Assembly (NCBI GenBank): GCA_027622665.1
Contig: JAQBYT010000008.1
Span: 32,001-96,000, forward strand
Reading direction: 5' to 3'
Origin: Verrucomicrobiota bacterium
GTDB lineage: Bacteria > Verrucomicrobiota > Verrucomicrobiia > Opitutales > Seribacteraceae
Length of the DNA: 64,000 bases
A program made the position numbers and the translations under genes. Shown here in pieces: positions 2,529-39,363 of this stretch (positions are counted from its first letter, which is position 1; each line of letters begins with the position of its first letter). Under the pieces are notes generated by a model. The model did no database searches. It was given only the letters and a program-made list of their open reading frames with translations, and had not been told where the DNA came from.

Positions 2529-3409
2529 GGAACCTTTATCGTGGGTTTACCCTCCAACCAGCCAAGGGAGATCAGAAACTTATCCATTTCCAGAACCGTT
2601 TTTTCGTAATAATTTCCCTGTTTCCCCTTGTTGAAGAAGCCGTGCGGTTGTCCGGCGTAGACGTGAAGGTCCGACCGACTCCCCGCTTTTTCCATCAGGG
2701 CCTTGTATTTCTCGGCCGTGGAAACTGGAATCAGCTTGTCTTGGTCACCTAGGAAGACGATGGCCGGTGGCGTACCCTTGCGGATGTTGTCGATGGGCGA
2801 AATCTCCTTGTAGCGATCCTTTACTCGATCATGGCCATAGCCCTTGGGCCCGTTGTCGTATACGGGATTGAAAAGAGCCAAGGCATTCGGCTTGGACGAT
2901 ACCGACAGGTCTTCGCCTTCCTCCTCCAGTCCCGGCACCGTGCCGGTGGCCGCGGCTACGTGCCCTCCGGCTGATCCTCCGCCCGCAGCCAAGCGTTCCG
3001 GGTCGATCCCCAGTTTCTTTGCGTTTTGGCGAATCCAGCGAACGGCCGACTTCCCGTCCTTCACGCACTCGAAGGGTGGGGTGCCTTGCCGAGATCTCAC
3101 CCGATAGTCGGCGCTCATCGCGACCATCCCGCGAGATGCGAGATATTCGCAATGCGGGCCGAACTGAGCGGGGGTGCCGCCACTCCAGCCGCCACCGAAG
3201 AAAAACACGATCGCAGGCCGCTTGTCCTTCTTCGGGTCATGCCCTTCGGGATAAAAGACGTTCAGGATCAACTTAGCCCCGCTCGCCTCCTTGTAGACGA
3301 GGTGCACCGCTCCCTCGATCGGGGAGGCGACCTTGCCCTCCTTGGCCAATGCTGACGTAATCCAGAGGAAGCTCGCTAAAAGAGTTAGGAGCATTAACTT
3401 TATTTTCAT
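2525..3409 (-). CDS. Secreted alpha/beta hydrolase (HSL-like acetyl esterase)
   Basis: FGGGW oxyanion motif, GGSAGG nucleophile elbow, GDQD and HGFF triad motifs. Signal peptide runs from the ATG at 3409. Confidence 0.85.
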   Translation of the reverse strand: MKIKLMLLTLLASFLWITSALAKEGKVASPIEGAVHLVYKEASGAKLILNVFYPEGHDPKKDKRPAIVFFFGGGWSGGTPAQFGPHCEYLASRGMVAMSADYRVRSRQGTPPFECVKDGKSAVRWIRQNAKKLGIDPERLAAGGGSAGGHVAAATGTVPGLEEEGEDLSVSSKPNALALFNPVYDNGPKGYGHDRVKDRYKEISPIDNIRKGTPPAIVFLGDQDKLIPVSTAEKYKALMEKAGSRSDLHVYAGQPHGFFNKGKQGNYYEKTVLEMDKFLISLGWLEGKPTIKVP

Positions 3410-3561
3410 GCATCCAAATTTGCAAGGCACTGGATTAAAGAGCGAGAGCAAATACCCTTTAATGCACCACAATCTTTCTTGGGTTATCCTTATCTCGAAA
3501 CTTGATTGAAGATTACTTCTTGCGCTATAAGAAAAATGTTCCAGCCCATTAAAACCATTAT

Positions 3562-4848
3562 ATGATGTATTTGACCTTCGCCAAAAGAATTTTAGTCACT
3601 GCCGTGGCCTTGTCGTTCATGCAAGTCGGGCTTCGGGCCGAGTCGCTTGAGATGTGGATCAGTTCCCATCAGGACCAGGTCTATTACGAAAAGATGGCGG
3701 AACTTTTCCGCAAGAAGACCAAGAAGGATCTGACCGTGTCGGTGAGTGCCTACGGTTTCCGGGAAATGCCGGACAAGCTGGGCGTGGCCTTTCGGACGGG
3801 AAAGGGCATGCCCGACCTCGTGCAACTGGACGAAACCTTCTTCGGGGTGTTTCTCGGTCCCAAGTCTCCCTTCGTCGACCTGACCAAACGGGTAAAGGAG
3901 TCGGGCTTGGACAAAGATCTCCATTCGAGGCGACTGGAAGTGTTCACCTACAAGGGTCAGGTATTGGGCGTTCCCCAATCATTGAGTGCCATGGTGCTCT
4001 ACTACCGGAAAGATTTGTTCAAGGAGCTCGGGGTGAACCCGGACGACTTGGCGACCTGGGAGGGAGTGGAGACAGTGGGGGAGCATCTTCAAAAGAAGCA
4101 CGGTCAGCGGCTCATGGCAATCGACGGTACTCTTTTCGACGTGTTGCTTCGGCAACGCGGGAGCGACCTTTTCGACGCCAAGGGCAAACTGCTTCCGGAC
4201 TTCGAGTTGGCGGTGGAATTGCTTGAGAAATTATCGGACCTCTCTGAGAGGCAGATCACCGTATTGCCCGACCGTGGCACGATTTTCGACCCCGTCTTTT
4301 TCAGTGGCGACTTGGAGACCGGCGAGGTGCTCTGCGTACCTGGGGCCGATTGGTACGGGCTCGACCTCTTCCAGCAGTTCGCCCCCGATATGAAGGGAAT
4401 GTGGGGCATGCTACCCCTTCCCGCGTGGAAGGACGAGAAGGGTGAACTGGGCCCCAGAACAGCCACTTTTGCTGGCCAAGGTCTCATGATTTGCAAGGGC
4501 AGCAAGAAACAGGACGCGGCGTGGGAGTTCATTGATTTCGTGATGAAAGATCCCGATGCCAACGCCGAACGTTTCCTGCAGGGAAACAGCTTTCCCGCCT
4601 ACAAGCCCGCCTGGAAGGACAAACGCCTCCTGAAGAAGCACGAGTACTTCGACCAGTCCATGGGCAAACTTCTTATCGAACTGGAAAAGGAAATTCCTCC
4701 CGTGAACGTAAACCCCAAGCGACCGCAGGCGATCTTCCTCATGCAGGAAAACTACTTCGGTGCCATCATGTTCCAAGCCCTCGAGGCCCGCAAGGCACTG
4801 GAAGAGTACAGGGACGCCATCGAGGCGAAGGACGGCAACCGCAGGTAA
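3562..4848 (+). CDS. Carbohydrate ABC transporter substrate-binding protein
   Basis: Signal peptide, PDLVQL and LYYRKDLF motifs, adjacent to two permeases. Confidence 0.85.
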   Translation: MMYLTFAKRILVTAVALSFMQVGLRAESLEMWISSHQDQVYYEKMAELFRKKTKKDLTVSVSAYGFREMPDKLGVAFRTGKGMPDLVQLDETFFGVFLGPKSPFVDLTKRVKESGLDKDLHSRRLEVFTYKGQVLGVPQSLSAMVLYYRKDLFKELGVNPDDLATWEGVETVGEHLQKKHGQRLMAIDGTLFDVLLRQRGSDLFDAKGKLLPDFELAVELLEKLSDLSERQITVLPDRGTIFDPVFFSGDLETGEVLCVPGADWYGLDLFQQFAPDMKGMWGMLPLPAWKDEKGELGPRTATFAGQGLMICKGSKKQDAAWEFIDFVMKDPDANAERFLQGNSFPAYKPAWKDKRLLKKHEYFDQSMGKLLIELEKEIPPVNVNPKRPQAIFLMQENYFGAIMFQALEARKALEEYRDAIEAKDGNRR

Positions 4849-4858
4849 ATAGTTTGTT

Positions 4859-5884
4859 TTGCCTAGTCTTTTGCAAACGCATCGTACAGGGCTGTTTTCT
4901 CTCATACTCTTTATCGGCCCGTTCTTCGGCCTATTGCTCTTATTTTGGGCAGTGCCGCTCGGACTGAGCGTCGATCTGGCTCTGCAACACCCCGATTACG
5001 TTCCTGGTTACCGCGAGGATGCCGCACCGCAAGGAGGGGAGGGCGGGGGCTCGGCAACCTCGGGTTCCGCGGATTGGTTGAATGTTTCCTGGGAACCTGA
5101 AGAAGAAGCAGCGAATGAACCGGTCGAGAAGTACGTCGGCTTCGGCAACTTCTCCTATGTTCTCGGCGACCCCAAGTTTCACAAGGCTCTGGGAAACACT
5201 GCCCTCTACGTCTTGGGCACGATTGGCATCGCGCTTCCCCTTGCCTTCTTTCTTGCCCATTTCCTGCGGCAGGTTCCGGGGCGGATGCGGCCTGTCCTTA
5301 GTTTTCTGCTTCTTCTTCCCGGGCTTTGCCTGTCGGGAGTGCTGGCTACGCTCTTTCAACTGTTTTTTCACGGGCGAGAGGGGGCCCTCAACCAGTGGTT
5401 CGTCGTGCCTATGGGGTTCGAGCCGATAAACTGGTTGCTTGACCCGTCCTTCGTGTTGCCTGCCCTCGTCCTTCAGGCGGTATGGAGGTGGACGGGGTTT
5501 ATTGTTCTTTTCTTCCTTTGCGGCATGGAGGCCATACCCAAGGCCTATTACGAGGCGGCTAGGGTGGAGGGAGCCGGTGCATGGCGGGTGCTAAGAACCA
5601 TAACCTTTCCCGCCGTCCGACATGTGACGGTATTCGCCGCCGTGTTCCTTGTCATCGACGGTTTCGCCTCCTTTTCGGGAGCCTACAACCTGCTCGGTGG
5701 TTCGGGCGGGATTCTGGACTCCGGCCTCCTGCTGGTCACCTACTTGTATCAGGTTGCCTTTCCGGGAGGTTCCGGACAGTTCGACTTTCCTGCTGCTGCC
5801 GCCATGAGCTTGCTGGTGGTGCCTCTTACCGCACTGGTTCTGTTTCTCGTCTTGTTCGGTAGAAATCGATTCTCACGTACATGA
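4859..5884 (+). CDS. Carbohydrate ABC transporter permease (MalF/UgpA-like)
   Basis: Multiple TM helices, VGFGNF, EAA loop YEAARVEGA. TTG start is uncertain. Confidence 0.88.
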   Translation: MPSLLQTHRTGLFSLILFIGPFFGLLLLFWAVPLGLSVDLALQHPDYVPGYREDAAPQGGEGGGSATSGSADWLNVSWEPEEEAANEPVEKYVGFGNFSYVLGDPKFHKALGNTALYVLGTIGIALPLAFFLAHFLRQVPGRMRPVLSFLLLLPGLCLSGVLATLFQLFFHGREGALNQWFVVPMGFEPINWLLDPSFVLPALVLQAVWRWTGFIVLFFLCGMEAIPKAYYEAARVEGAGAWRVLRTITFPAVRHVTVFAAVFLVIDGFASFSGAYNLLGGSGGILDSGLLLVTYLYQVAFPGGSGQFDFPAAAAMSLLVVPLTALVLFLVLFGRNRFSRT

Positions 5885-6705
5885 ATTCTAGTTCTGCAAG
5901 ATACTTTTCTCCCGCCGTGCTCGTCTCCTTGCTTGCGGGACTGGTCTTTTCCTATCCCTTTCTGTGGATGTTTCTTTCCGCGTTCAAGACCAACAAGGAA
6001 ATCTATCAACCCTTGCTCCTGTTTCCCGCCGACTACGAATGGGATGCCTTTGCTGCCCTGTTTTCGGGGAAGTACCTCGATTTCACCAGCTTCTTTCTCA
6101 ATTCCGTTTTCATTTCCTGTATGCAGGCCCTGTTTGCCACTGCCGTTACAGCCTGCGCCGGATTCGCGTTTGCCAAACTGAATTTCCGGTTCAAGGGAGC
6201 ATTCTTCCTGTTGGCGGTATTGGTCATTCTGGTACCGAAGCAAGCCTTGGCCATTCCGCTTTTCGAATGGTTGACTTGGCTGGAACTGAACGGAAGCCGA
6301 TGGGCGGTGATCCTGCCCGGGATAGCCAGCGGGCTCGGCATCGTGTTCTTCACCCAAATCTTTAGCCGGATTCCGAACGAATTGATCGATCTCGCAAGGG
6401 TGGAGGGGGCATCGCTGCCCCGAACCTTTCTCGCAATCCTCCCGCTGGTGGCTCCGGCCCTCGTTACCTATGGCTTGATCCACTTCATCCTGGCGTGGCA
6501 GGAACACTTGTTTCCCTTGCTCCTGCTTTCCGATGCCAACCAAACCTTGCCCTTGGGGCTCGCCAAGCTGCGCGACTCCAGTCACCGAATTCCCGAAGCC
6601 GTAGCCATGGCGGCCGCCACCTTTACGCTCGTTCCTGTGGTCGCCTTGTTCGCCGTCTTTTATGGGAAGATGCGAACGGCTCTGGCCGAACTGACCCTAC
6701 ACTGA
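5881..6705 (+). CDS. Carbohydrate ABC transporter permease (MalG/UgpE-like)
   Basis: PFLWMFLSAFK, IPNELIDLARVEGA loop, TLPLGL. ATGA overlap with the previous gene. Confidence 0.88.
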   Translation: MNSSSARYFSPAVLVSLLAGLVFSYPFLWMFLSAFKTNKEIYQPLLLFPADYEWDAFAALFSGKYLDFTSFFLNSVFISCMQALFATAVTACAGFAFAKLNFRFKGAFFLLAVLVILVPKQALAIPLFEWLTWLELNGSRWAVILPGIASGLGIVFFTQIFSRIPNELIDLARVEGASLPRTFLAILPLVAPALVTYGLIHFILAWQEHLFPLLLLSDANQTLPLGLAKLRDSSHRIPEAVAMAAATFTLVPVVALFAVFYGKMRTALAELTLH

Positions 6706-7791
6706 GAGGTTTTTCCCTGTCTCCGGGTCGAACAGGTGACACCGTTCGGAATCTACGGTCAAGCTAACCTTGGAACCGATTTCCACTTCCGGTCGTTCCG
6801 TCACCTTTGCCACCAACAGGCTGTTGGCTACGCGAACATGCAGCAAGCGAGCCTCGCCGACATCCTCCAGCATTTCGAGCATTCCTTCCAACAAACCATA
6901 TTGGGAATCTTTGACATTCCCAGTTGCTAGGCTGAAATCTTCGGGCCTTGCTCCGAGTATGGTTTTACCTGCGGGAATGTTCTTAAGCTCCTCACTTAGG
7001 GGGAGAGTGCAATCGCCCATGGCGAAGCACGCATCGCCGGCCTCTTCTGTTTTTTCGCCTTCCAGAAAATTCATTGATGGGGAACCTATAAATTCGCCGA
7101 CAAACCGATCGACCGGATGATCGTAGACTTCCTTTGGAGTACCGACTTGGCGGATCAAGCCCTCATTCATGACGCAGACGCGGTCGCCGAGGGTCATGGC
7201 TTCCACTTGATCGTGGGTGACGTAGATCGTGGTGGTGCCCAGTTCACGGTGCAGGAGCGCCAGTTCTCGTCGCATGGTAACCCGGAGACGCGCATCGAGG
7301 TTGCTTAATGGCTCGTCCATGAGAAAGACGGCGGGCCTTCGGGCAATGGCTCGTCCAAAGGCGACTCTTTGGCGTTGTCCACCCGAGAGAGCTCCCGGCT
7401 TTCGATCGAGTAATTCGTCCAATCCCAGTTTCTCGGCGACTTCCAATACCCGTGTCTTCACTTCCGATTCGGGAGTCTTTCTAGCTCGCAGACCGAACGC
7501 CATGTTGTCGAAGGCCTTCATGTGAGGATACAGGGCGTAGTTTTGGAATACCATGGCGACGTCTCGGTCTTTCGGTTCCATGTCGTTTGCCAACTTTCCG
7601 CCGATTCGAAGGGAACCTGAGGTGATTTCCTCCAATCCGGCGATCATTCGAAGAGTCGTCGTCTTTCCGCAACCCGAGGGTCCAACCAAAACCAAAAACT
7701 CGCCATCCGATGCGGTCAGGCTTACGTTGTCCACGGCCTTTACGTTCTTGGGGTAGATTTTACTAACGGAATCTAATTCGACTTCAGCCAT
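6697..7791 (-). CDS. Sugar ABC transporter ATP-binding protein (MalK/UgpC family)
   Basis: Walker A GPSGCGKT, VFQNYALYPHM, LSGGQRQR signature, MDEPLSNLD, YVTHDQ, C-terminal TOBE-like region. Confidence 0.93.
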   Translation of the reverse strand: MAEVELDSVSKIYPKNVKAVDNVSLTASDGEFLVLVGPSGCGKTTTLRMIAGLEEITSGSLRIGGKLANDMEPKDRDVAMVFQNYALYPHMKAFDNMAFGLRARKTPESEVKTRVLEVAEKLGLDELLDRKPGALSGGQRQRVAFGRAIARRPAVFLMDEPLSNLDARLRVTMRRELALLHRELGTTTIYVTHDQVEAMTLGDRVCVMNEGLIRQVGTPKEVYDHPVDRFVGEFIGSPSMNFLEGEKTEEAGDACFAMGDCTLPLSEELKNIPAGKTILGARPEDFSLATGNVKDSQYGLLEGMLEMLEDVGEARLLHVRVANSLLVAKVTERPEVEIGSKVSLTVDSERCHLFDPETGKNLSV

Positions 7792-7887
7792 TTCTCGGTA
7801 ATCTTTTACACGTTGAGCCAGGAGAGTGAAGAAGAAAGGGGATCATTCACGCTTGTCGGAAACGTACAGTGGACTAGATTGTGGGGC

Positions 7888-8610
7888 GTGAAGAAAATCT
7901 TCGACTGCAAACTTGGGCTTTGGCCCATCGTCTTTTGGGCGGCACTCACTGGATGCCAAACCGACTCTTGGGAAAGCCCTCCATCGGATAGCTCGCGGCG
8001 ACCGGAGGCAATCGTGGCCGAGTGCACCCTGTGCCACAGCACGCAGGAGGCGCAGCGGGGTCCCATTCTGCACGGCATGGACAACTGGTACTTGCTGGAC
8101 CAAATACAGAAATTTCATTCGGGTGTGCGCGGACGAGATTCGGACAACCGTTCGGAATACCTGATGGGCTCGGCAGTGAAGAAAATTCGCAGCGACTATG
8201 AAATGGCCTTGGCCGCGAATTGGTTTTCTCAACAGGCTCCTCTTCCGGCCATTCGCACCGTTTCCGGAGACTTGGAAGCGGGAGCGGTGCTATACGCTTC
8301 CCGGTGCGCATCCTGTCACGGCGAAAAGGCCGAAGGGAAGCGGGAAACCCTCTCACCTTCGCTCACCCGCTTGGAGGGATGGTACTTTTTCGATCAAATG
8401 AAGAAGTTTCGTTCCGGCGATCGTGGCAGCAACCTCGCCGACTTGGGCGGAAAAGCGATGTCCGCCGCCGTCAACGGCATGAGCAACCGACAATTCAAGG
8501 ACGTGGTCGCCTACGTCGTCGAAACCTTCGGCCCGCCCGAGGCTCTCTCGCTCAGGGAAAAAATGCTGCAACGGGTCTCCGAAGGCAAGGATGCCAACGC
8601 CACTCACTAG
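7888..8610 (+). CDS. Di-heme c-type cytochrome (c4/c553-like), probable lipoprotein
   Basis: Two CxxCH motifs (CTLCH, CASCH), each followed by a YxxDQxxxFxxGxR segment and a distal Met. Lipobox-like ALTGC. GTG start at 7888 preferred over 7813. Confidence 0.85.
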   Translation: MKKIFDCKLGLWPIVFWAALTGCQTDSWESPPSDSSRRPEAIVAECTLCHSTQEAQRGPILHGMDNWYLLDQIQKFHSGVRGRDSDNRSEYLMGSAVKKIRSDYEMALAANWFSQQAPLPAIRTVSGDLEAGAVLYASRCASCHGEKAEGKRETLSPSLTRLEGWYFFDQMKKFRSGDRGSNLADLGGKAMSAAVNGMSNRQFKDVVAYVVETFGPPEALSLREKMLQRVSEGKDANATH

Positions 8611-9275
8611 GCAACGCTCGCACGAATGGCTTCCAGTCGCTCGGGCGTGCCTACGTCGTCCCAATTGCCCTTATGGAGGGCTCCACACACGCGATTGCCT
8701 GCTATCGCGGCCCTGAGGCGAGGCACGATCGAGAATTTTTCGACCTTGGCCCCGGCCAGAATTCTGGGGTGGTACAGTGCAATGCCGGCGTAGAGAAGCT
8801 GGGGGGCGTCGTCCTCGACAACTCGACCTTTGTCGGTAAGGGCGAAATCTCCTCGCTCCCGCCATGCAGGTTTCGGTACGAGATACAGCATGGCATCGTC
8901 TTCGGGAGGAAGTTGCTTCGGAATCTCGGTAAAGTCCATGTCGCACCAGACGTCGCCATTGACTACGAGGAAGGGGGCTGCTCCCAAAAGAGGCAGGGCC
9001 TTGGCTAAGCCGCCTCCCGTTTCAAGTGGATCGGGCCCTTCGTCGGAATAGACGATTTTCATGCCCCATTCGGTGCCATCCCCCAAGGTGTCGGGGATTT
9101 TTGACCCTAGGTGCCCGAGGTTGATGACTGCTTCCGTAAAGCCCGCAGAGCTCAACTTTTCCAGATGGTGGACAATCATCGGCTTGCCCCCAATCTCGAC
9201 AAGCGGCTTGGGTGTGTGATCTGTCAGTGGTCGTAGGCGTTTGCCGTAACCTGCGGCGAGAATCATTACTTTCAT
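8607..9275 (-). CDS. murU: N-acetylmuramate alpha-1-phosphate uridylyltransferase
   Basis: MILAAGxGxRLRPLTDHTPKPL, LETGGG, NGDV, WDDVGTPERL; directly downstream of the amgK-like kinase. Confidence 0.85.
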   Translation of the reverse strand: MKVMILAAGYGKRLRPLTDHTPKPLVEIGGKPMIVHHLEKLSSAGFTEAVINLGHLGSKIPDTLGDGTEWGMKIVYSDEGPDPLETGGGLAKALPLLGAAPFLVVNGDVWCDMDFTEIPKQLPPEDDAMLYLVPKPAWRERGDFALTDKGRVVEDDAPQLLYAGIALYHPRILAGAKVEKFSIVPRLRAAIAGNRVCGALHKGNWDDVGTPERLEAIRASVA

Positions 9276-9284: not shown

Positions 9285-10259
9285 TTAGGCAAGGAGTTTA
9301 GCTTGTTCGACGATTGAGCGGAGAGGCTCCAGTTCCGGCCAACGAGAAAGCACAGTCTTCGCATAGCGCAAAACTCTGGGCACGTCGGCGAGGTAACTGC
9401 CCTTGCCGTCTCGCAACTTTAGGCGGTGAAAGATGCCGATGCACTTGAGGTGTCGTTGCAGGCCCGTGAAGTCGAACCAACGTAGGAAAGCTTCATCGCT
9501 CAGCTCGTCCGGCAATACGCCGGACTCAACGAGTCCCGACTTGTGGGCCAGAGCCTTGGAGGTGATCCAATCCTCGGCGTTGTCGACGTAACAGTCGCGG
9601 AGCAGTGACACCGGATCATAGGTAATCGGCCCGTGAAGAGCACCTTGGAAATCGATGACTCCGGGGTTCCCGTCCGGCAATACGAGCAGGTTGCGACAAT
9701 GAAAATCGCGGTGAACGAAAACACGTGGTTGCTCGAGGAACGTATCGACTAGGAGGGTCGTGACTTTGCCGTACTTCTCTTGTGGGCAGTCGGGCAAGCA
9801 CCATTCACGAAAAATTTCCAGTTCCATGCGAACCCAGTCCTCATCGTAATCCTTCAAGGCTTTGGCTTCTTCCCTAAGTCCAGTCTGGATTTTTAGGATT
9901 TCACCCAGAGCCAGCTCGTATAGGCTGTCTCGACCGTCACCTTCGATGGCTTCCTGATAATGGAGGTCGCCGAAATCGGAAAGGACTAGAAATCCATTAT
10001 CCAGATCTTGGGCGAGAATTTCGGGTGCGCGAACTCCTGCTTGAAGAAGTACCTCTGCAATTTTTACGAAGGGTTCGCACGGTTCCTTGTCGGGCGGGGC
10101 ATCCATGACGACATAGGAGCGCCCCTTGAGCGTCCACCGGAAGTAACGACGAAAACTGGCGTCAGCCGAGGCAATCGCCAATTCGCCACCGGCAAAATCA
10201 GGTATGCTTTCTAGCCAAGCTAGAACCTCGTCACGTCTGGAATCCACCACAACTGCCAT
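9285..10259 (-). CDS. amgK: Anomeric MurNAc/GlcNAc kinase (APH-like phosphotransferase)
   Basis: ASADASFRRYFR, MDAPP, HRDFHCRNL, IDFQGAL, QRHLKxxGIFxRL; paired with murU. Start ATG 10259. Confidence 0.85.
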   Translation of the reverse strand: MAVVVDSRRDEVLAWLESIPDFAGGELAIASADASFRRYFRWTLKGRSYVVMDAPPDKEPCEPFVKIAEVLLQAGVRAPEILAQDLDNGFLVLSDFGDLHYQEAIEGDGRDSLYELALGEILKIQTGLREEAKALKDYDEDWVRMELEIFREWCLPDCPQEKYGKVTTLLVDTFLEQPRVFVHRDFHCRNLLVLPDGNPGVIDFQGALHGPITYDPVSLLRDCYVDNAEDWITSKALAHKSGLVESGVLPDELSDEAFLRWFDFTGLQRHLKCIGIFHRLKLRDGKGSYLADVPRVLRYAKTVLSRWPELEPLRSIVEQAKLLA

Positions 10260-10277
10260 AAGCAAACCCTTGGTTTC

Positions 10278-10338
10278 CGTGAACGTGGAGCATGAGCGAT
10301 GGCGCGTTAGCGACATTGCTCACTGCGATTGGTTATGG
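10278..10338 (-). other. attC recombination site 1 (integron cassette)
   Basis: Minus strand reads CCATAAC-CAATC-GCAGTGAG-CAATGTCGCTAACGCGCCATCG-CTCATGC-TCCAC-GTTCACG. This gives R'' (overlapping the stop codon), 5-bp spacers, an 8-bp L'' with one extra base versus the 7-bp L', a central hairpin and R' GTT. Confidence 0.85.
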
Positions 10339-10785
10339 CTTGAGGGTTGAGTATGTAAAATCATGTAAGCCATCTCTAAGTGATTCCGAAAAATAGCATA
10401 TTCTTTCGTAATAGGGTAGTTCGAAATACCCTTGTTTAAAATACTCAAAATCTTTCGATGCGTAAGTCTGGTTCAAGAGTGCAATCTCAGCTTTTGTCTC
10501 TTCCGTGATCTCCACCAAGTCTTGGATTCCCTCAGCTTCGCATTGAGATATCGCTTCAACCAAATTGTGACCAATTTTTCTTAATTCTTTCAGGTTTTTT
10601 CCTTTTGCTCGTAGGTAAGATTTCAATAAGAGCTCGATCGAGTGCGATACCAAATAATAAGCAGTCGTTGGGGCATGATGATCTAAGAGATGATCCGGCT
10701 TCCTTGGATCTTTTATTTTCTCTCCTGCATCGAGGAAGTCTCGCCCATATCTCCATAGGCCAAATGGTTTTACTCTTTCTTCCAT
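10333..10785 (-). CDS. HEPN-like domain protein, integron cassette ORF
   Basis: SHSIELLLKSYL and GHNL motifs resemble HEPN helices. AT-richer than flanks. ATG lies within R' of attC2 and TAA within R'' of attC1. Confidence 0.7.
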   Translation of the reverse strand: MEERVKPFGLWRYGRDFLDAGEKIKDPRKPDHLLDHHAPTTAYYLVSHSIELLLKSYLRAKGKNLKELRKIGHNLVEAISQCEAEGIQDLVEITEETKAEIALLNQTYASKDFEYFKQGYFELPYYERICYFSESLRDGLHDFTYSTLKP

Positions 10786-10837
10786 AACGTCGAGGTAGAT
10801 CACGGCGATAGCCGTTGATCTCACCGCCTTGTTCGAT
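10782..10837 (-). other. attC recombination site 2 (integron cassette)
   Basis: Minus strand reads ATCGAAC-AAGGC-GGTGAGAT-CAACGGC-TATC-GCCGTG-ATCTACC-TCGAC-GTTATGG. Canonical R''/L''/L'/R' spacing with two unpaired bases. Confidence 0.9.
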
Positions 10838-10840
10838 TCT

Positions 10841-11080
10841 TTATTTTTTAATTAGCGCAACAATCGAAACGCATAACGCCAAAACTGACAAACTAATCGT
10901 AATCCATGAACGTATCTCCTGCCATTTATTCTTTCTTCTCTCTATTTCGTATTTTCCAACGAAAACATCGAGACACTCCGAACGCTTACCTGCAATCCAC
11001 TCAAGCAGAAATCCGTCGCTCATACTTTGAACTTCACGAAGCGACTTCTCGCCCTCTGACTGTTGATGATTTGGATTCAT
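10841..11080 (-). CDS. Small hypothetical protein (79 aa) with C-terminal TM helix, integron cassette ORF
   Basis: ATG preceded by GAGA, stop just before attC2, hydrophobic tail WITISLSVLALCVSIVALIKK, AT-rich. Confidence 0.65.
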   Translation of the reverse strand: MNPNHQQSEGEKSLREVQSMSDGFLLEWIAGKRSECLDVFVGKYEIERRKNKWQEIRSWITISLSVLALCVSIVALIKK

Positions 11081-11211
11081 TGTTATCTCGTGTTAGTAGG
11101 TTACAGTCTGTATGGGGAGGACCAATCGATGATCTTTCGGAAATCGGCTTATTAATTGCGGTTGAAATGCCTAGATTGATACTTGCTATAAAAAATTCCT
11201 TATCGAACAAG

Positions 11212-11234
11212 GGCGTTCGTCAACGAAGAACGCC
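11212..11234 (-). terminator. Stem-loop downstream of DUF3500 gene, possible weak terminator
   Basis: GGCGTTC-N9-GAACGCC perfect 7-bp stem 13 bp after the stop. Only CTTGTT follows on the minus strand, so the U-tract is poor. Confidence 0.35.
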
Positions 11235-11247
11235 AAAAAGTAAGGTT

Positions 11248-12222
11248 TTAGGCCTCGATATTCGCCCAAACGTGAACATGGGGCTTGCCCCTGAAATACC
11301 ATACCATCTTGGGGCCTTCGACTTGCCATACGTCCCAGACGCCATCATCGCCGATATCCTCCTTCTTGTAGTAGGAGAGGTGGAGCTTGTTGAGGTCGTT
11401 GGCCTCGATGAGCTTCATGGCCTCGTCAGCGTCTTTCTTGCGGAAGGGTGCGAGGAGGTCTCCAAGTACCTTGCCCAAGAGCCCCTTCTGGTCTGCGGAA
11501 AGCTCGGAGGCCGGCAACCCCTCCAATCCTTCGGTAGAACCCTTGGTCTGGATTGTCTTGTTGCCGCGTTCCCCACGGCTGCGTTTATCGAGAAGGGCGA
11601 CCTTGCGTTGCTTGCCGTCGAGGGCTTGGTAGAGCTCGTTGGCCCGCTTAGCCTGGAACCAGTAGGCGTTGCCGGGATGATCGGCAGCTTCGTTAAATCC
11701 TTTGGCTGAGTGACCGTAGAAGATCGGGCCTCCGAAGGCGGCGCCTTCCACGGAGTCGCCGTCGCAGCGCCGGGTGCAGTGGCGACCAGTGTAGACGAAC
11801 TCGAACTTGCCCGAACCCGGCTTCCCGAAAAGGGCTATGGAACCTTTGCCGAAGCCACCGTCATGCTCCACTTGGTCATAAACCTTATCTGCGTAGTGGG
11901 GGCTGTGAAGCTTGAGGAAGATTTCCCGAACCATGGCCTGCTGATCCTTGGTGAACTGGCTGACGCGGGTCTTGTTGATGTGCCAATTGTTGTCCACCTT
12001 GGAGCGGAGTTCGTGATCAAAGGGAAGGCAGATGGCCTCGCGTTGCTCATCGGTCAGGCTTTTGTGGAGGGTGGCGACGAGGGTTTCGGACTGTGGTCCC
12101 TTTAATACATCTGTCTTCGCGAAGGCAGTCTTGGAATCAAGCAGGAGAGAGCCTGTAGAGGCGAGGGCGGCGGCACCCACAAATTTGCGACGGGAGAGGG
12201 AGAAAGTTTTTTTGTCTATCAT
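11248..12222 (-). CDS. DUF3500 domain protein, Tat-exported
   Basis: SRRKFV twin-arginine signal; GRHCT, GPIFYG, and C-terminal FRGKPHVHVW. Confidence 0.75.
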   Translation of the reverse strand: MIDKKTFSLSRRKFVGAAALASTGSLLLDSKTAFAKTDVLKGPQSETLVATLHKSLTDEQREAICLPFDHELRSKVDNNWHINKTRVSQFTKDQQAMVREIFLKLHSPHYADKVYDQVEHDGGFGKGSIALFGKPGSGKFEFVYTGRHCTRRCDGDSVEGAAFGGPIFYGHSAKGFNEAADHPGNAYWFQAKRANELYQALDGKQRKVALLDKRSRGERGNKTIQTKGSTEGLEGLPASELSADQKGLLGKVLGDLLAPFRKKDADEAMKLIEANDLNKLHLSYYKKEDIGDDGVWDVWQVEGPKMVWYFRGKPHVHVWANIEA

Positions 12223-12255
12223 GATGGTGGCGGATTTGGCGTTTAGGTTTTCAGT

Positions 12256-13707
12256 TCAGGCAAGAATATCATGTACTACTTTGGCTCCTTCAACGCCAGT
12301 AAGGCGTTGATCGAGACCGAGGTAGCGATAAGTGAAGCGTTCGTGATCGATGCCAAGGCAATGCAGCACGGTGGCGTTGAGGTCGTTTACGTGAACCGGG
12401 TTTTCCAGAATGTTGTATGCAAAGTCGTCGGTTTTGCCGTATTCGAGCCCTGCCTTGATGCCGCCACCTGCCATCCACATGCTGAATGCCCGTCCGTGGT
12501 GATCTCGCCCGTGGTTGTCCTTGGTAAGTTTCCCTTGTGAATAAATCGTGCGGCCGAATTCGCCTCCGCAAACAACTAGGGTGTCTTCCAATAGACCGCG
12601 TTGCTTGAGGTCGAGTACTAATGCGGCGGCAGGTTGGTCTATATCCTCGCACTGTTGGCGAATCTTGGAGGGGAGGGCCCCGTGTTGGTCCCAACCCCGA
12701 TGGAACAACTGGACGTAGGGAACGCCACGTTCGGCTAGGCGACGAGCTACTATGCAATTGTGGGCGAAACTTCCTTTTTTGCGGGCATCCTTGCCATAAA
12801 GATCAAGCACATGGGCGGGTTCGTCCTTCATATCCACGAGTTCGGGTACGCTGGATTGCATGCGAAATGCCATCTCATACTGCGCTATGCGGGCGTCGAT
12901 CTCCGGATCGCCGGTTTCCTGCTTCTTGGCTTGGTTGATCTTGGCGATGCCGTCTAGCATCGAGCGGCGTACGTCGCGAGTGACGCCGGGAGGGTTCGAC
13001 AGGTAGAGGACAGGATCGCCCGCGCTGCGAAACTTAACGCCTTGGTGTTTGGACGGAAGGAAACCACTGCCCCATAAGCGGTCGTAAAGGGCTTGGGATT
13101 GACCGCGTCCCTTGGAAATCATTACGACGTAACCCGGCAAATTATGATTCGGGCTGCCCATACCCCAACTGAGCCATGCCCCAAGAGAGGGTTTTCCGGG
13201 TTGTTGGACGCCGGTATTGATGGCGGTGATGGCGGGATCGTGGTTTATGGCCTCGGTGTGGACGGACTTAATGAGAGTGATCTCATCAGCGATGCCTCCG
13301 ATTTTCGGAACGATTTCGCTGAACCAGCTCCCATTTTGCCCATGGCGAGAAAACTTGAACATCGGAGCCACGCAAGGAAATGATTTCTGCCCCGAGGTCA
13401 TTCCCGTGATGCGCTGACCTTGGCGAATTGAGTCAGGCAGTTCGATACCGTGGATATCTCGCATTGCGGGGTGGTAGTCGTACATATCGATGTGCGACGG
13501 ACCGCCGGAGAAGAATAAATAAATTACCCGCTTTGCTTTAGGACGAAAATGAATGCCTCCAAGCGTGCCTCCAAGGCCATCGGCAGTAATTCCTGCCGTA
13601 AGCGCAGGATTAAGAAGATTTGCTGCGCCAAGGGCTCCAAGCCCTCGGGCACCTAGGTTGAGAAGCTTTCGGCGAGTGAGAGCCGGATTGATATCGTAGG
13701 AATTCAT
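12256..13707 (-). CDS. DUF1501 domain protein (sulfatase-like fold), Tat-exported
   Basis: TRRKLL signal; [46 protein letters not shown]. Confidence 0.92.
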
Positions 13708-19596: not shown

Positions 19597-20131
19597 GATT
19601 AGAAAGAAAAGATTCGGGATGGTATTGCATGCCGAAGAGGCGTCTTTCGCAATCTTCGAAGGATAGCGGGACGTTGCGGATGCGATCGCGAGCAGTGGTC
19701 CTAATGCCGGTCGGCAGGTGTGAAAGGCTTGAGGATTCGACTTGAAGCGAGTGGTAGCGACCGACCTTTACGGGGGGCTCGATGCCGGCATAGGTGACGG
19801 ATTCGGGATCTGTTTCGATTTCGGTTTCCACTCCATGGAGGACTTGCGGTTGTCGAACGATGCGGGCCCCTTCCTCTTCAAGCATAAGCTGAAAGCCCAG
19901 ACAAACGCCAAGGATTGGTTTCTTACCACGCAGTTGGTGATAAAGCGCCTGAGTTTCCGGATAGTCCGCCGGCTTTCCGGGGCCAGGTGAAAAGACGACC
20001 ATCCGAGATTCTTCTGAATTTGCGACTTCGGTAGCCTCGAGACGATCGAGCACCACGACTTCCTCAAAGTCTGAAAGTAGATGTTCGAGGTTTCTGGTGA
20101 AGGAGTCTTTGTGGTCAACGAGGAGGATCAT
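19550..20131 (-). CDS. pabA: Aminodeoxychorismate synthase glutamine amidotransferase component
   Basis: MILLVDHKDSFT, SPGPG, GVCLG, RYHSL, QYHPES. ATG at 20131 overlaps the pabB stop (ATGA). Confidence 0.88.
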   Translation of the reverse strand: MILLVDHKDSFTRNLEHLLSDFEEVVVLDRLEATEVANSEESRMVVFSPGPGKPADYPETQALYHQLRGKKPILGVCLGFQLMLEEEGARIVRQPQVLHGVETEIETDPESVTYAGIEPPVKVGRYHSLQVESSSLSHLPTGIRTTARDRIRNVPLSFEDCERRLFGMQYHPESFLSNHGHAILANVIHYCMG

Positions 20132-21363
20132 CGCAACAGGTCGAGCAAGGCGCGGGCCTTTACTCCGTTTTCGTTGTATTCGTATTCGGGAGAGGAATTC
20201 ACGACTATGCCGCCGCCCGCTTGGGCAAAGCAACGGTCTTCTAGAATCAAGAGGGCCCGAATGATGAGGTTGAGGCGGATCGAACCATCGTCTCCGATAG
20301 TGCCGAAGCTTCCTGTGTATGGCCCTCGAAAGCAGGGTTCGAGCGAGTCGATGATCTCGATGGTACGGATCTTTGGGCAACCTGTGATGGTGCCTCCCGG
20401 AAGCATGGATCGAAGGATGCCTGCAAGATCACAATCAGAACGAAGCCGTCCCTCGATCGTGGACACGAGGTGAAAGAGGTGGGCATAGGTCTCCACTTCT
20501 CGAAACCGAGCTATCCGAACGCTTCCCAATTCACAGACGGCGGAAAGGTCGTTTCGTTCGAGGTCGACCAGCATGTTGTGCTCGGTTACCTCCTTGGGAT
20601 CGCCAAGAAAACGGGCGATTGCTTCGCTGTCGCCAATACCGGATCGCCGTTCGTGAGTTCCGCCGATGGGGCGAGTTACGATTTTTTCGCCCGTTTTATC
20701 GATTACCGTTTCCGGGGAACAACTGACGATGGCAAAGTCGGGTTGGCGAATCAGGAAAGCTTCGGGAGAAGGATTGGCGGCATGAAGACGGCGAAAGGCG
20801 TCGATGGGGTCGATCGAGATTCGGGCTTCGTGACGCTGGGAAATCTTTATCTGGTAGGTCTCCCCGTCGAGAATGGCTTCTCGAGCAGTGGCGAATACCT
20901 TCTCATAATCTTCGAAGGAAAGGTTGCAAATGATCTCTACGGGATTCGCCAAGGGTTTCGGAACCACAGGATCCACCAAACTGGCGGCGAGTTCCTCTTC
21001 GCGATCAGGGAGAGTGGATTCGATGGATAGTAGACTCTCCCTCAATCGCAGGATCGTTTGCGGACGGCCGAAAAAACCTTCCGGAACCGAAATGTCGCGG
21101 TTAGCCCTAAGCTGAACACCTGCATGTTTGGCTAGGAATTCGTATCCGAAGAATCCCACCCAACCGGAAAAGGAAAGCCCCGAGGGCGAAACCGTTTCAG
21201 CCAGCTTGCCGATTTGCTCCGAACTATTGATCGAATCCAGGGTCAAGGTTTCTGCGAAGTCGAGATAGGCGACGTACCCTCCTCCTCGATCGGTGCCCAC
21301 CATCAACGACCCATCCAGATGGGATAAGCTAGCCAGCGCATCAAGAACCTCAATCTCCTTCAT
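20128..21363 (-). CDS. pabB: Aminodeoxychorismate synthase component I (chorismate-binding)
   Basis: GETYQ, SPE, EHNMLVDLERNDL, HLVS, PGGTITGCPK, RGPYTG, AGGGIV; folate operon context. ATG 21363 overlaps the HAD stop. Confidence 0.85.
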   Translation of the reverse strand: MKEIEVLDALASLSHLDGSLMVGTDRGGGYVAYLDFAETLTLDSINSSEQIGKLAETVSPSGLSFSGWVGFFGYEFLAKHAGVQLRANRDISVPEGFFGRPQTILRLRESLLSIESTLPDREEELAASLVDPVVPKPLANPVEIICNLSFEDYEKVFATAREAILDGETYQIKISQRHEARISIDPIDAFRRLHAANPSPEAFLIRQPDFAIVSCSPETVIDKTGEKIVTRPIGGTHERRSGIGDSEAIARFLGDPKEVTEHNMLVDLERNDLSAVCELGSVRIARFREVETYAHLFHLVSTIEGRLRSDCDLAGILRSMLPGGTITGCPKIRTIEIIDSLEPCFRGPYTGSFGTIGDDGSIRLNLIIRALLILEDRCFAQAGGGIVVNSSPEYEYNENGVKARALLDLLR

Positions 21364-22043
21364 GGCAAAAGGTCGAGAAGTTCTCGAAAACTCTCTATCC
21401 TTGATATGTTCTCGGGCGATGCACACGCCTTCTCAGAGTAAAGCGCGGTGTGCCAACCTGCTGACAATGCCCCTTGCACGTCCCTTGAATAGCTGTCTCC
21501 GAGATGAAACATATCCTTGGGGGTGGTTCCTAGTATTCGTTCCACTTCTTGAAAAATTTCCGGCGAAGGTTTTTCAAAACCAATCTCGGAGGAAATGAAC
21601 AGTGCTTCAAATAGTCCGCTTACACCGAGGTCGCGAAGAACGGGACGAAGACGGGAATCGTTGTTCGAAAGTACCGCCAGACGATAGCCACGCGTTCCTA
21701 GAACTTGGAGGGTGTCGACAGCTCCGTCGGCAAGCCGCCAGCATTTTCCCTCGGCAAAAGTTTCCCAGAGTTCCTCGAAGAGGGAATCGTGAATTTCTTT
21801 TGGGCAGAATCCCTCGAATGTGCGCCCCACGATCATACGCCAGAAACCCCGTTCGTCTCCCTCGAACGTCACCTTGGTGGACTGCGTCTCGGAAAAAACG
21901 CGATAGAATCGCTCGTTTATCTCGCTGTCTTCGGTTGCATAACCTCGGCATCGAGCGGCGTCCGCATAGACGTTCCCTACAGAAGGCCAAGGCCGCATGA
22001 GCGTGCCTGCGGCATCAAAAGTGATGGCTCGTACAGTCGACAT
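21360..22043 (-). CDS. HAD-IA family hydrolase (REG-2/HDHD3-like)
   Basis: FDAAGTL motif I, LSNND motif II, EKP motif III, HLGDSYSRDVQGA motif IV. Confidence 0.9.
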   Translation of the reverse strand: MSTVRAITFDAAGTLMRPWPSVGNVYADAARCRGYATEDSEINERFYRVFSETQSTKVTFEGDERGFWRMIVGRTFEGFCPKEIHDSLFEELWETFAEGKCWRLADGAVDTLQVLGTRGYRLAVLSNNDSRLRPVLRDLGVSGLFEALFISSEIGFEKPSPEIFQEVERILGTTPKDMFHLGDSYSRDVQGALSAGWHTALYSEKACASPENISRIESFRELLDLLP

Positions 22044-26998: not shown

Positions 26999-29002
26999 AT
27001 GCTGACCTTCGTGCAACCAATGGCTCTTTGGGCTTTTGCTGCCTTGGCCTTGCCCGTCATTGCTCACATGGCGTATAGGCAGGTCACGAATCGATACCTC
27101 TTTCCCTCCCTCCGTTTCATAAAGCCTGCTCGCATTCCCAGAACAGGTCGCAAAATACCTACCGATTGGCTGCTGTTACTCGCTAGGATCATGCTTTTTG
27201 CCGTATTGGCCTGCCTCTTTGCCGATCCCTACTGGAAAGAACCCTCTCCACCCGAGGCCACCAAAGTAGGGCGTGAAACAGTAATCGCTCTGGACCTGTC
27301 TCCGAGCATGTCTGGTTGGGCCGGCCTATCCGAGGCAAAGAAAAGGATCGATGGACTTCTCGAGAAAATCGAGGGGCAGGTAGGTTACGTCGGTTTCGGT
27401 TCCGGCGTATTGGCGGAAATCGCCCCGACCGATGAGGTCGGCCTTGTGCGAAGTGCCATTGCACAGGCCACCACCGGCTACGGGAGTGGCAACCCGCAGA
27501 CAGGCATTGATCGAGCGGCAAAACTCTTTTCTTCCGGGGCGAAGGAACGAAATTTGGTTGTATTATCCGACTTTCAACGTTCGGACTGGCAGGCCACCTA
27601 CCGTCGTCTCGACGAGGAAGGGATCACCGTAGATCTCCGCCCGGTCGGTCATTCCCGAAAGGTGGGGGGGAAACGCGAGGGCAACCTGTCGCTCGCCGAG
27701 GCCAAGGCTGCTCCCGCCGGTCCCGGCAAAGTGAGAGCATGGGCCGTGGTTCGCAATTCTTCCAATGAACCGGTTGAAACCACTATTTCAATCGAAGCCG
27801 GCGGTGAAATTCGTGAAGAAAAGCCCATCATGGTTCCTGCGAATGGGGCAACCCAAGCGCAATTCATTCTACCCGAAGGAGATTTCGCCTCGGCCATCCT
27901 TAAACTAATGGATGAAGATGAGCTAGCCGTGGACAACGTACGCCATCTTTGGCTGAAAGCTCCTCCGCCCAGGAGATTCGGATTTTGGAGTTCGACGAAC
28001 GAGACCGAAGAAACTATCGAGGAACGTGAATTCCTTAAAGTGGCCATCGAGAGCGCGGGAGACAATGGGTGGAACCGCTGGCTTTCCGTCCAAGAAAATG
28101 CCGATGGCCTCCGAATTGGTGACCTGACGAGCGAACTGGACTTACTCATCGTCACCGGAATCGGATCATGGTTTGCCGAGGAAAAGCTTGAGGAAACAAT
28201 GAAGACCTACCTCAAAGGTGGCGGCTTTGTCATCGTGACCCCTTCGGAGCCTTTTGCCGCTTCTGTTTCGACATTACGTAATTCCGATCTTCTCGACCTC
28301 GGTTTCGTTCGGGTGGTAGGTGGCGCCGGCGCCACTCGCGAACCGTTCCGGATTTCGGCCTTAGAACCTGGTTCCCACCTTGCCAAAACCTTTTCTGGGA
28401 AAGCCGCTCGCGACCTTTATTTGACTGGTATTTACAGGTACGGTCTCGTCCGACCTGCGGAGGCTGAGGGAGTATCCACGCCACTTCAATCCACGGAAGG
28501 CAACCCCTTTGTTGTTCAGCGCATTTTCCCCGAGGGCGGGAAACTGACCTTCTTCCCTTATCGCCTAAACGCAAGGTGGACGGACCTTCCCATGAGAAAT
28601 AGTTTTCTTCCGCTTATCATGGAGCTCGTTCGTGGTTCAAAGGGTGTGATCGACCGATCTTGGCCGCGCTTGGAATCCGGTGAAACCTTGGTGGACGGCG
28701 AGGAGACTTTTCGAGCTGAAAAGCCGGGGACTTTTCGTTTTCGGGATCGCTTTGTGGAAGTGGCTCTCGCCCCCTCCGAAAGCATTGCCGAGGTCATTGA
28801 ACCGGCGGAAACCAGAGAAAGCCTTGGAGCCGGATCCATCCTAGGCAAGGTGAACACCTCCGGCGAAGACCTCGACGAAGAAGAGAGCAAGTCCCTGTGG
28901 TTGTGGTTTGCAATAGCGGCGGTGATTCTTTTTATTACTGAAAACCTTTGGTCTAGGCCACGCAGGACAACAGTACTTGAAAAGGAAACGGTAAATGCCT
29001 GA
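26999..29002 (+). CDS. BatA N-terminal double-TM + vWA domain protein
   Basis: MLTFVQP...ALPVIAH...FPSLRF, DLSPS MIDAS, SDFQ, DN, LPMRNSFLPL, C-terminal TM helix. Confidence 0.85.
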   Translation: MLTFVQPMALWAFAALALPVIAHMAYRQVTNRYLFPSLRFIKPARIPRTGRKIPTDWLLLLARIMLFAVLACLFADPYWKEPSPPEATKVGRETVIALDLSPSMSGWAGLSEAKKRIDGLLEKIEGQVGYVGFGSGVLAEIAPTDEVGLVRSAIAQATTGYGSGNPQTGIDRAAKLFSSGAKERNLVVLSDFQRSDWQATYRRLDEEGITVDLRPVGHSRKVGGKREGNLSLAEAKAAPAGPGKVRAWAVVRNSSNEPVETTISIEAGGEIREEKPIMVPANGATQAQFILPEGDFASAILKLMDEDELAVDNVRHLWLKAPPPRRFGFWSSTNETEETIEEREFLKVAIESAGDNGWNRWLSVQENADGLRIGDLTSELDLLIVTGIGSWFAEEKLEETMKTYLKGGGFVIVTPSEPFAASVSTLRNSDLLDLGFVRVVGGAGATREPFRISALEPGSHLAKTFSGKAARDLYLTGIYRYGLVRPAEAEGVSTPLQSTEGNPFVVQRIFPEGGKLTFFPYRLNARWTDLPMRNSFLPLIMELVRGSKGVIDRSWPRLESGETLVDGEETFRAEKPGTFRFRDRFVEVALAPSESIAEVIEPAETRESLGAGSILGKVNTSGEDLDEEESKSLWLWFAIAAVILFITENLWSRPRRTTVLEKETVNA

Positions 29003-32000: not shown

Positions 32001-32123
32001 CAATTCTTCTGGAAGGAAGCCGTCGAGGAACGCCTGCGCCGCAACCACGAAACGACTGCCGCTCCGCGCAAGTACAAACGGCAAGTCGAAGAATACTTCC
32101 GTCGAATCGCGGAAGGGAATTAA
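28995..32123 (+). CDS. Large membrane-anchored DUF4175-like coiled-coil protein
   Basis: Three N-terminal TM segments, PPSY, PDKPPVV, DDYG, TDN, long acidic/Gln-rich helical region, terminal YKRQVEEYFRRI. Confidence 0.75.
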   Translation: MPEFLNILRREARLVAFSRMAVALAAAFVTWPGLALLLDAYDAAFPILESQAVKYVFVALGVTALVFLLLAWRAWAARPNPEQVAIEVEKGNPQLMDLLNCAVDLHDREREEYTFMERRVLEKAEQRAETISWERGARPGGRFWSAVVAGLLAGSLLTAWSFERSPLQKTFDSLLDEPGLSVFTTKTGETRAKEHPASYEFSRGTDISVFADVTRGHRGKKNAFIEFEENGKVERLEMLETTTLGRFEYVVPGLAEPFVYRIVTLSIEGNWQKLNPYDPPVLEEARWDIIPPSYSGLVAFEQVGFGHRRVPEGSRIELSLQVAATPPHVVAHILSEANSSNELARNDEGFFELNRVLRKDWSGRLALKDSDFPQRDAVEYEEFVFSVIPDKPPVVEITEPAKDLEVPSDGQLLLEIFAADDYGVAKAEVIVSHGGKKEAVNVFPDPVEREKTLSHIIDLSELSLAVGDVVSYHAIVTDNKEPEGQQARSEIYFIEILPPEGEEIEGDGGDMAAEQKEIPIRDFINQTKQIIRSTYDALGEEGEERDRRAIAISADALGLKHGMTKVYDENDGEFPSVDGIDLGELLNEATFHIEQTEIFAGDNELEKSLEPSEETLRKLVLMYALIRKEQKMKSKGKGKKGDKQEETAEKQEPSEEQGEPSDPAEELKKLGEALEQARDLQERQNELNSKIGRASRNGRKGEPNRELAKEQDEIQEDTEGLRDDVYGKSGRIGDVRSFDRAGEEMQDSKGELSKDDPQKAKPHGDLAAEALSDAISEIEGKMSAIAADMLGQLESQGKGLAKRQRENAEKTEGAGAGSGEPLKGEQDGINEEAKDLLSKIEQAGMALRDLSENATEDLFRSAREARGKGIEKSGKRASNALLYEAFPQAKREEDKVAGELEDVAEDLADVKRKLQNQGNAALAELAKKLRETQQQLPGMGDEQLKERSDELAKAIGNLPGGESDERVRNLTQFFEQVAIDENPSQARSAASEAVAQALELVEQFFWKEAVEERLRRNHETTAAPRKYKRQVEEYFRRIAEGN

Positions 32124-32124
32124 G

Positions 32125-36900: not shown

Positions 36901-37314
36901 ATGGCCGACGACAAGTTTCCTGCCCCACCCGAACCCACGGGCGACTTCCCCGCAGCGCGTTCCTCACTCCCGCCTTTCGTTTGGTGGATTGTCGCAGCCA
37001 TAGCGGTCATTACCTTCATTTTCTTTCTTCCTAGCCAGTGCGGCTTGGAAAACATCGAAACACCCAGCCCCGCCGTTACCGACCCTAATGAGCAACCCGT
37101 GGCGGATCAGGAAACCGAAATGGAGCTAAGGAAAGACCAACTGTGGTACAAGATCGACGCAGAGAAGCCCTTCACCGGAGCCGCAATCGAGAAGCACCCA
37201 AACGGTAAAATGAAGTCTCGCACCCTCATGAAGGATGGAATTTCCTTCGGATTGATCGAAGAGTGGGACGTCAACGGTTCAGTCGTCGGGCCAAAATTCA
37301 AGGACGAGTTGTGA
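36901..37314 (+). CDS. Single-TM hypothetical protein with MORN-variant (YwqK-like) repeat
   Basis: ATG 36901; TM WWIVAAIAVITFIFFL; KPFTG...HPNG...KDG..G...EWD.NG. Confidence 0.65.
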   Translation: MADDKFPAPPEPTGDFPAARSSLPPFVWWIVAAIAVITFIFFLPSQCGLENIETPSPAVTDPNEQPVADQETEMELRKDQLWYKIDAEKPFTGAAIEKHPNGKMKSRTLMKDGISFGLIEEWDVNGSVVGPKFKDEL

Positions 37315-38075: not shown

Positions 38076-38136
38076 GCCTAGTTTCTTAGGGAGTTGATGC
38101 TTATTCAGGGGAGCGGGGCTTTCTCTCAGAACGCTT

Positions 38137-38335
38137 AATCCGGCGACACGGGATTTTATTGCTTACTCCACCGAGCCGGTGGCGTAATTATCAAAATAGG
38201 CTCGCCCATCCTTTCGCCTCAGGAAGGAGAGCGAATCATGAGTGCTTGCTCGGAAGACATAGCAATAGCTACACGGGTCGGGCCAGAACTAACGCTGTAC
38301 CTAGCATGACTTGTTGCACTTTTCCTTAGGGGCAA
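38137..38335. ncRNA. Candidate structured RNA / palindromic element
   Basis: Two small hairpins (38137-38155, 38163-38187) and a long imperfect rod (38213-38335) lie in an ORF-free gap between convergent 3' ends. No family recognised. Confidence 0.3.
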
Positions 38336-38358
38336 CCGAAAGTCTTTCTATGAGGTAC

Positions 38359-39316: not shown

Positions 39317-39363
39317 TGTGATTTTTACCCGATTGTCGAACAGGGGCTGCTCGAGCCAGGGAA

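Follow-up and report, generated by a model that had tools for sequence, protein, structure and literature searches.

The locus lies in the window, by which we mean the whole 64,000-nucleotide stretch of DNA analysed here. The window is part of contig C26 (135 kb) of a genome referred to below as G000, and the closest relatives of its amgK gene are found in Opitutales, in agreement with the PVC-type host suggested by the initial annotation. Read along the minus strand, a DUF3500 gene is followed by an AT-rich stretch of 924 bp (10284-11207), then by amgK and murU. The 924 bp consist of two gene cassettes, inserted with base precision at a single G/TT target between DUF3500 and amgK. The features of the locus are the following:

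11248-12222, minus strand: DUF3500 protein of 324 aa, the upstream host flank (Pfam PF12006, E 1e-17)
11212-11234, no strand assigned: conserved host inverted repeat GGCGTTC-N9-GAACGCC, overlapping the -35 box and seen in loci L008-L015
11218-11223, minus strand: predicted amgK promoter -35 box TTGACG, with the cassette crossover 10 bp downstream
11207/11208, minus strand: left crossover G/TT, where cassette 1 meets the host half-site, a breakpoint of the 924-bp indel
10788-11207, minus strand: cassette 1, 420 bp, starting with a 7/7 complement of the attC1 R''
10841-11080, minus strand: 79-aa ORF of cassette 1, with a hydrophobic C-terminal helix
10782-10837, minus strand: attC1, 56 bp, with two extrahelical bases (T-N6-C type), recognised by pattern, score, fold and covariance model
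10284-10787, minus strand: cassette 2, 504 bp, with the same start and R'' in loci L039, L041 and L042
10333-10785, minus strand: 150-aa HEPN-fold ORF of cassette 2, its ATG at cassette base 3
10278-10338, minus strand: attC2, 61 bp, with one extrahelical C, recognised by pattern, score, fold and compensatory changes
10283/10284, minus strand: right crossover G/TT, where attC2 meets the host half-site, a breakpoint of the 924-bp indel
9285-10259, minus strand: amgK-like kinase of 324 aa, peptidoglycan recycling (NF045759, E 2e-71, below the cut-off)
8607-9275, minus strand: murU, directly after amgK (NF045761, above the cut-off)

GC content of the insert is 0.415, compared with 0.573 and 0.540 in the 1-kb flanks, so the region is AT-richer than its surroundings, as had been noted. 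The initial annotation also described two palindromes of 56-61 bp with attC geometry, and each feature it listed is found in its place on the minus strand. Both sites consist of AAC, a 5-nt spacer, an 8-nt L'' paired to a 7-nt L' with one bulged base, another 5-nt spacer and GTT. The boxes are R'' ATCGAAC, L'' GGTGAGAT and L' ATCTACC in attC1, and R'' CCATAAC, L'' GCAGTGAG and L' CTCATGC in attC2. The proposed complementarity between the first bases of each cassette and its own R'' holds at 7/7 positions in both cassettes. The R boxes do depart from the RYYYAAC/GTTRRRY consensus, once in attC1 and twice in attC2, with pairing kept; the deviating CCATAAC R'' is common to the homologous HEPN cassettes. 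The core of attC1 resembles the attC of the first cassette in the complete integron of G012, another genome of the family. A contig of sequencing run X13 matches window positions 10282-10334 (attC2) with different sequence on both sides, suggesting that this attC type also serves another cassette.

Folded without constraints in their circle form, the bottom strands of both sites gave the textbook hairpin, in which the R box is complete and the L box carries a bulged C. The bottom strands were more stable than the top strands (-15.8 vs -14.1 kcal/mol for attC1 and -18.0 vs -12.1 kcal/mol for attC2). A second extrahelical base, T, is present in the attC1 fold six pairs away from the C. The attC2 fold has a G.T wobble in its place and hence a single bulged base; extrahelical bases are described as dispensable in some attC sites in the accessible part of PMC5027507. 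The same part of that source gives G as the usual extrahelical base. The first extrahelical base is C on the bottom strand of both sites, as the initial annotation had it, but the idea that this C marks a lineage-specific attC family did not survive comparison. Among 14 attC candidates of G000, read by hand, the bulged bottom-strand base is C in six, G in five, T in two and A in one, and in the homologous HEPN cassette of L039 and L041 it differs from that of attC2. C as the extrahelical base is also on record in attC dfrA1 and blaVIM-2, which recombine well according to the accessible text of PMC3053210.

The bare attC pattern is not selective and is weak evidence on its own: it had 37 matches in the genome and 20, 21 and 23 in three shuffled versions of it. 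The match at C5:46309 has no matching cassette start and was left out of the count. A score matrix trained on 12 other candidate sites of G000, with attC1 and attC2 held out, ranked these two third and sixth in the genome (37.2 and 35.8), the rest of the top 13 being the training sites; the best match in the reversed genome scored 29.1. A weak held-out covariance model with three pairs found attC1 as the best match in the window (E 0.0022) but did not detect attC2 (E 2.8). Covariance model R1 missed both sites genome-wide and had matches in at least 6 of 24 other genomes, counts that are lower bounds because the model has only three pairs and 150 candidates were scored per genome. The two attC sites had no match in Rfam. 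With about 21 pattern matches per shuffled genome, one could take the palindromes for chance structures in an AT-rich island, or the whole stretch for an assembly chimera. It is the comparison of loci, beyond any pattern scoring, that we consider decisive for the cassettes.

Neither cassette ORF occurs in any of the 21 relatives' amgK loci. The initial annotation would have been contradicted by conservation of both ORFs between DUF3500 and amgK, and both are absent there in relatives. DUF3500 adjoins amgK directly upstream in 9 of the 21 loci. In the four closest congeners (G003-G006, amgK 86-92% identical), the flanks align without gaps across the crossover and the site is empty. An empty allele was also found on a single 53.5-kb contig of run X14, which skips exactly 924 bases and differs from the filled allele at 8 of 3,077 flank bases (99.7% identity). 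Pieces of the cassettes occur in runs X12 and X13, which come from other studies than X14. The site is therefore polymorphic within the species, and since the congeners are empty, the empty allele is likely the ancestral state. No one-cassette intermediate was present in the contigs of four runs, contigs being prone to drop rare variants.

The empty allele sets the breakpoints independently, and these coincide with the predicted G/TT, which chance palindromes do not explain. As for a chimera, nine runs contain the filled stretch at 99-100% of its words; all nine were flagged as possible sources of the window DNA, and run X13, which was not flagged, bridges attC1. We regard chance and chimera as refuted by the filled/empty pair together with the recurring cassette ends, and as extremely improbable. 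The exact indel bears in the same way on the view that the cluster was left behind when a sedentary integron lost intI, or was carried here by a transposon as part of an array. Both routes have been proposed for CALINs (10.1101/030866, accessible part), and larger clusters on contig C65 of G000 do lie beside IS91-type and reverse-transcriptase fragments. At amgK, the indel comprises the two cassettes alone, with no attI, intI remnant, IS end or target duplication, and the family integron lies beside lpdA, not at amgK, in all three genomes inspected (G012, G024 and G014, loci L111-L113). The exact empty allele thus largely refutes the remnant or moved-piece reading, which we hold to be very unlikely. 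The IntI frame of the lpdA-side integron is open for about 400 aa and includes a long extension at the N-terminus.

The search for an integrase and further attC copies, suggested by the initial annotation, found no IntI over the cut-off in G000. TIGR02249 had six partial matches (best 105 bits, cut-off 265), and neither TIGR02249 nor any tyrosine recombinase was matched on C26. tblastn of G000 with IntI of three relatives gave only partial matches at 24-40% identity. IntI exceeded the cut-off in none of the 8 congeners and in 11 of the 75 family genomes. The G000 assembly is 93.5% complete and the relatives' genomes are incomplete assemblies as well; as integrons often break assemblies, we describe IntI as not found rather than absent. 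With two attC sites and no integron integrase on the 135-kb contig, the cluster is an integrase-free one (CALIN), as annotated, and not a complete integron, since no intI adjoins the array. No excised circle was seen.

In our opinion, the two cassettes were most probably inserted by an IntI acting in trans at a secondary, attG-type chromosomal GTT. The base-exact insert and the empty allele in congeners and in the same species bear out the original proposal that IntI-mobilised cassettes landed in the core chromosome. The integrase would bind the attC bottom strand in its folded form and cleave at G/TT; it may have come from a transient element or may be encoded in an unassembled part of the genome, and the cassettes could have arrived in one step or two. 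Alternatively, the insertion could have taken place in another strain or species and the filled allele could have entered by homologous recombination through the flanks, no integrase having ever acted in this lineage. The failure to find IntI in any of the nine genomes of the genus would fit such an allele entry, and a glgB cassette nearly identical in three congeners (see below) could reflect allele exchange. Nevertheless, no foreign tract is visible, as none of the listed flank differences is near the junctions; the filled amgK allele occurs in none of the congeners examined, and an IntI-type event is needed somewhere anyway. We consider allele entry unlikely.

The target could also be an orphan and dedicated attI-like site at which an integrase encoded elsewhere acts repeatedly, in which case the empty allele would perhaps result from excision. 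The left half-site of the cluster is conserved host DNA of the predicted promoter, and an inverted core (AAC, 6 bp, GTT), kept in the four closest congeners, spans the crossover. Yet none of the nine relatives that keep the gene order has a cassette there, and the GTT itself is lost in G001 and G007. The arrangement is also missing at two other insertion sites of the genus, those of C25 and glgB, of which the former is inside a coding sequence. A dedicated site is therefore, in our view, quite unlikely. Insertion at an attG-type target agrees with the core GTT, which conforms to the consensus 5'-GWT-3' of attG sites. Positions +6 to +9 do not match the hotspot motif CRGM, defined from six E. 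coli hotspots only (10.1101/2022.09.11.507474): CGGA is located at +5 to +8 here and CGCA in three congeners. A T at -2 of the targets (YTG/TT) was seen at several junctions and discarded as a rule after glgB, where the base is A in G005 and G008 and G in G000.

Insertion by IntI at this target would have consequences for expression. TTGAC (TTGAA in one case) is located about 22-34 nt before the amgK start in most loci of the family, and the distance is 34 in the empty allele. The crossover follows TTGAC at a distance of 10 bp, so amgK has been parted from its predicted -35 box by the insertion. Throughout G000, counts of TTGAC ahead of the first ATG of long ORFs rise to a peak at 28-35 nt (52 and 29, compared with 5-22 in other bins), while four unrelated control words are distributed evenly before start codons. 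This peak suggests that many G000 transcripts are leaderless or nearly so and that their -10 box is weak. The predicted amgK -35 box would thus have been separated from its -10 region and could now pair with the AT-rich hexamer AGGAAT of cassette 1 across a 17-bp spacer. The hybrid hexamer scores 2.73 and the native one 1.62 with a -10 matrix that is itself weak, having been trained on 116 sequences and being low in information (median of the training set 2.0; coding background, 90th percentile 2.08). A consensus promoter scan of 10200-12400 found no sigma-70 site. No terminator was called on the minus strand.

It is plausible that a hybrid promoter drives both cassettes and, behind them, amgK-murU. 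A single transcript would run through both cassettes into amgK-murU, and the promoterless cassettes would be expressed from it. RNA run X15 comes from a related strain with the empty junction and has no cassette cover; it was available as contigs, which cannot show expression. The inverted repeat at 11212-11234 is present whether or not the cassettes are and had no terminator call. It is more conserved than its own flanks across two genera and may possibly be a regulator site, the operator of amgK-murU.

Further attC clusters were found in G000 on contigs C25, C38, C58 and C65. The C25 locus (positions 3016-3900, L055) contains a single 885-bp cassette inserted exactly within the first codons of a host gene, and the site is empty in all three congeners having the locus (G003, G005 and G006). 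Judging from the sequence, the frame of the host ATG now continues into the cassette and ends at an ATGA that overlaps the likely start of the cassette gene, an arrangement that could provide translational coupling. A cassette of about 485 bp, nearly identical in G003 (L117:4700-5189), G005 (L118) and G008 (L125), is located behind glgB; at the corresponding site of G000 (C22:28073) it is absent to within one base. The C38 site is empty in relatives, with a diverged junction, and no clean empty site was mapped for C58 or for the larger C65 clusters.

The C58 cluster (19688-21696, L054) has two cassettes and an AT-rich left site, which diverges from relatives about 15 bp before the crossover; it may have been moved here as part of an array, together with an attI remnant. 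On C65, the larger clusters (28900-35500 and 37200-39400, L052) have cassettes in both orientations and include an AbiU2-type HEPN gene, a PIN gene and fragments of an IS91-type transposase and a reverse transcriptase. Another C65 cluster (3926-8020, L051) includes an apparently split gene for an OLD-family ATPase/TOPRIM protein. At C5:58029-61634 (L056, GC 0.32), a truncated tyrosine recombinase of 201 aa is divergent from cassette-like genes; the locus has a long attC-like site and one gene with a Por secretion tail, the latter pointing to a Bacteroidota origin. L056 is either a foreign integron-like fragment or a misassembly near a contig end.

More speculatively, and with considerable doubt, visiting integrases might scatter cassettes over the core chromosome in this Opitutales genus, which apparently lacks an integron of its own. 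The cassettes that persist would be those hijacking host expression signals, such as the predicted amgK -35 box or the C25 start codon with its ATGA overlap. If this were true, the chromosome itself would be a distributed, expressed cassette array.

The HEPN cassette was traced beyond the genus. Six other homologues of the HEPN protein are 65-75% identical to it (one of them, P0002, labelled Cerasicoccus fimbriatus). The three close homologue loci with DNA (L039 from genome G153, L041 and L042) start with G/TTATGG and end with CCATAAC, as cassette 2 does. Their upstream neighbours differ: a non-attC site in L039 and attC-like ends in L041 and L042. In the L stem of L039 and L041, four of the seven pairs are changed relative to attC2 and all seven are kept; this compensatory covariation is not circular, since the loci were found by protein similarity. 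Comparison of the loci shows the HEPN cassette to be mobile between contexts. In G153, which belongs to a different family, it heads another two-cassette cluster (L039:10292-11263), and two other contigs have IntI-like pieces at their ends. The cassette structure was not seen in eight more distant homologue loci, two of which have an attC candidate nearby. A further homologue locus, L040, is the window's own locus (99.6% identical) and does not count as independent. The HEPN gene was found in one of 400 other genomes of the order and, by word patterns, nowhere in the genome contig collection. Its frame is open backwards through attC1, with GTG codons at 10824 and 10803.

The predicted model of the 150-aa protein has a pLDDT of 96, and its best structural match is 4nqf (Z 12.8, rmsd 3.2, 131 residues aligned). 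The top six VIA-align matches are all HEPN domains at Z 9.8-12.8, values below about 13 being weak for helical bundles, and the top five Foldseek matches are of HEPN type (E 0.03-0.3). The Pfam HEPN match of the ORF is below the cut-off (E 0.0087). The protein family has 1,389 representatives at E<0.001; 36 of 127 members match PF05168 at E<0.01, and a PDB sequence search with the 127-member profile gave nothing below E 0.1. E50 and H72 are invariant in the alignment of these 127 members and K54 is conserved. The catalytic motif of HEPN RNase toxins is R-x4-6-H. The 150-aa protein does not have it; R68-x3-H72 is present instead, and R68 occurs in only 35% of members. PF05168-type HEPN proteins (4nqf, TT1696, sacsin HEPN and AF0298) share the predicted fold and differ in that our protein lacks R-x4-6-H, its cassette has no nucleotidyltransferase partner and identity to the top matches is 8-17%. 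PADLOC gave weak PDC-S19 matches only (query E 0.0099; the commonest model in 22 of 127 members), too weak to be counted as evidence of defence. From the fold and these weak matches, one may guess at a stress or anti-phage protein. The 79-aa ORF of cassette 1 has four other homologues (76-95% identity), no Pfam match below E 0.09 and no NCBIfam match, and its atlas matches are unnamed; cassette 1 was not found elsewhere in the genome contig collection.

Whether small CALINs originate by integrase loss or by off-site insertion has so far been debated on the basis of surveys and laboratory assays. The insertion route now has direct evidence from nature in a base-exact filled/empty pair of one wild species, with two more pairs in the genus, and these provide real targets to assay. 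Landing in a host promoter could moreover allow a promoterless cassette to be expressed in the absence of Pc. As the mechanism itself is known, the gain is one of confirmation and not of a new system. Our literature search, which covered few subscription journals, found no natural chromosomal filled/empty cassette pair, which does not imply absence from print. With an empty allele in the same species and a crossover in the predicted host promoter, the amgK cluster is likely an unusually clean natural case of already described off-target cassette insertion.

IntI has been shown to insert cassettes at 5'-GWT-3' attG sites, with expression near resident promoters, and such insertion was proposed as the origin of small CALINs (10.1101/2022.09.11.507474). 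As in that work (Loot et al.; Nat Microbiol 2024), the crossover here is at a GWT in ordinary chromosomal DNA, and expression is expected when a resident promoter is near. In contrast to the attG assays in E. coli and V. cholerae, the present case is natural, comes from a marine Opitutales and involves two cassettes, the CRGM motif is off by one base and the insertion is inside a predicted promoter spacer. Natural aadB insertions at secondary sites of plasmids RSF1010 and pRAY, known to us as cited in 10.1101/2022.09.11.507474, likewise placed an off-site cassette behind a resident promoter; judging from that citation, the amgK cluster differs in being chromosomal, environmental, free of resistance genes and polymorphic within a species. 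In Xanthomonas, small clusters apart from intI also occupy several chromosomal loci. Those outside the ilvD locus are conserved across species and read as ancient in the accessible part of 10.1101/2025.06.18.660453, unlike the amgK cluster, which is recent and strain-variable. Secondary-site insertion is among the origins proposed for CALINs in the accessible text of 10.1101/030866, and two-cassette CALINs are the commonest size, with 1362 of 2961 in a survey (10.1101/2022.09.11.507474). The amgK cluster resembles surveyed CALINs in having two attC sites, no nearby intI and promoterless cassettes in one orientation. Those were classed by attC detection only, whereas the origin of the amgK cluster is pinned by an empty allele from the same species.
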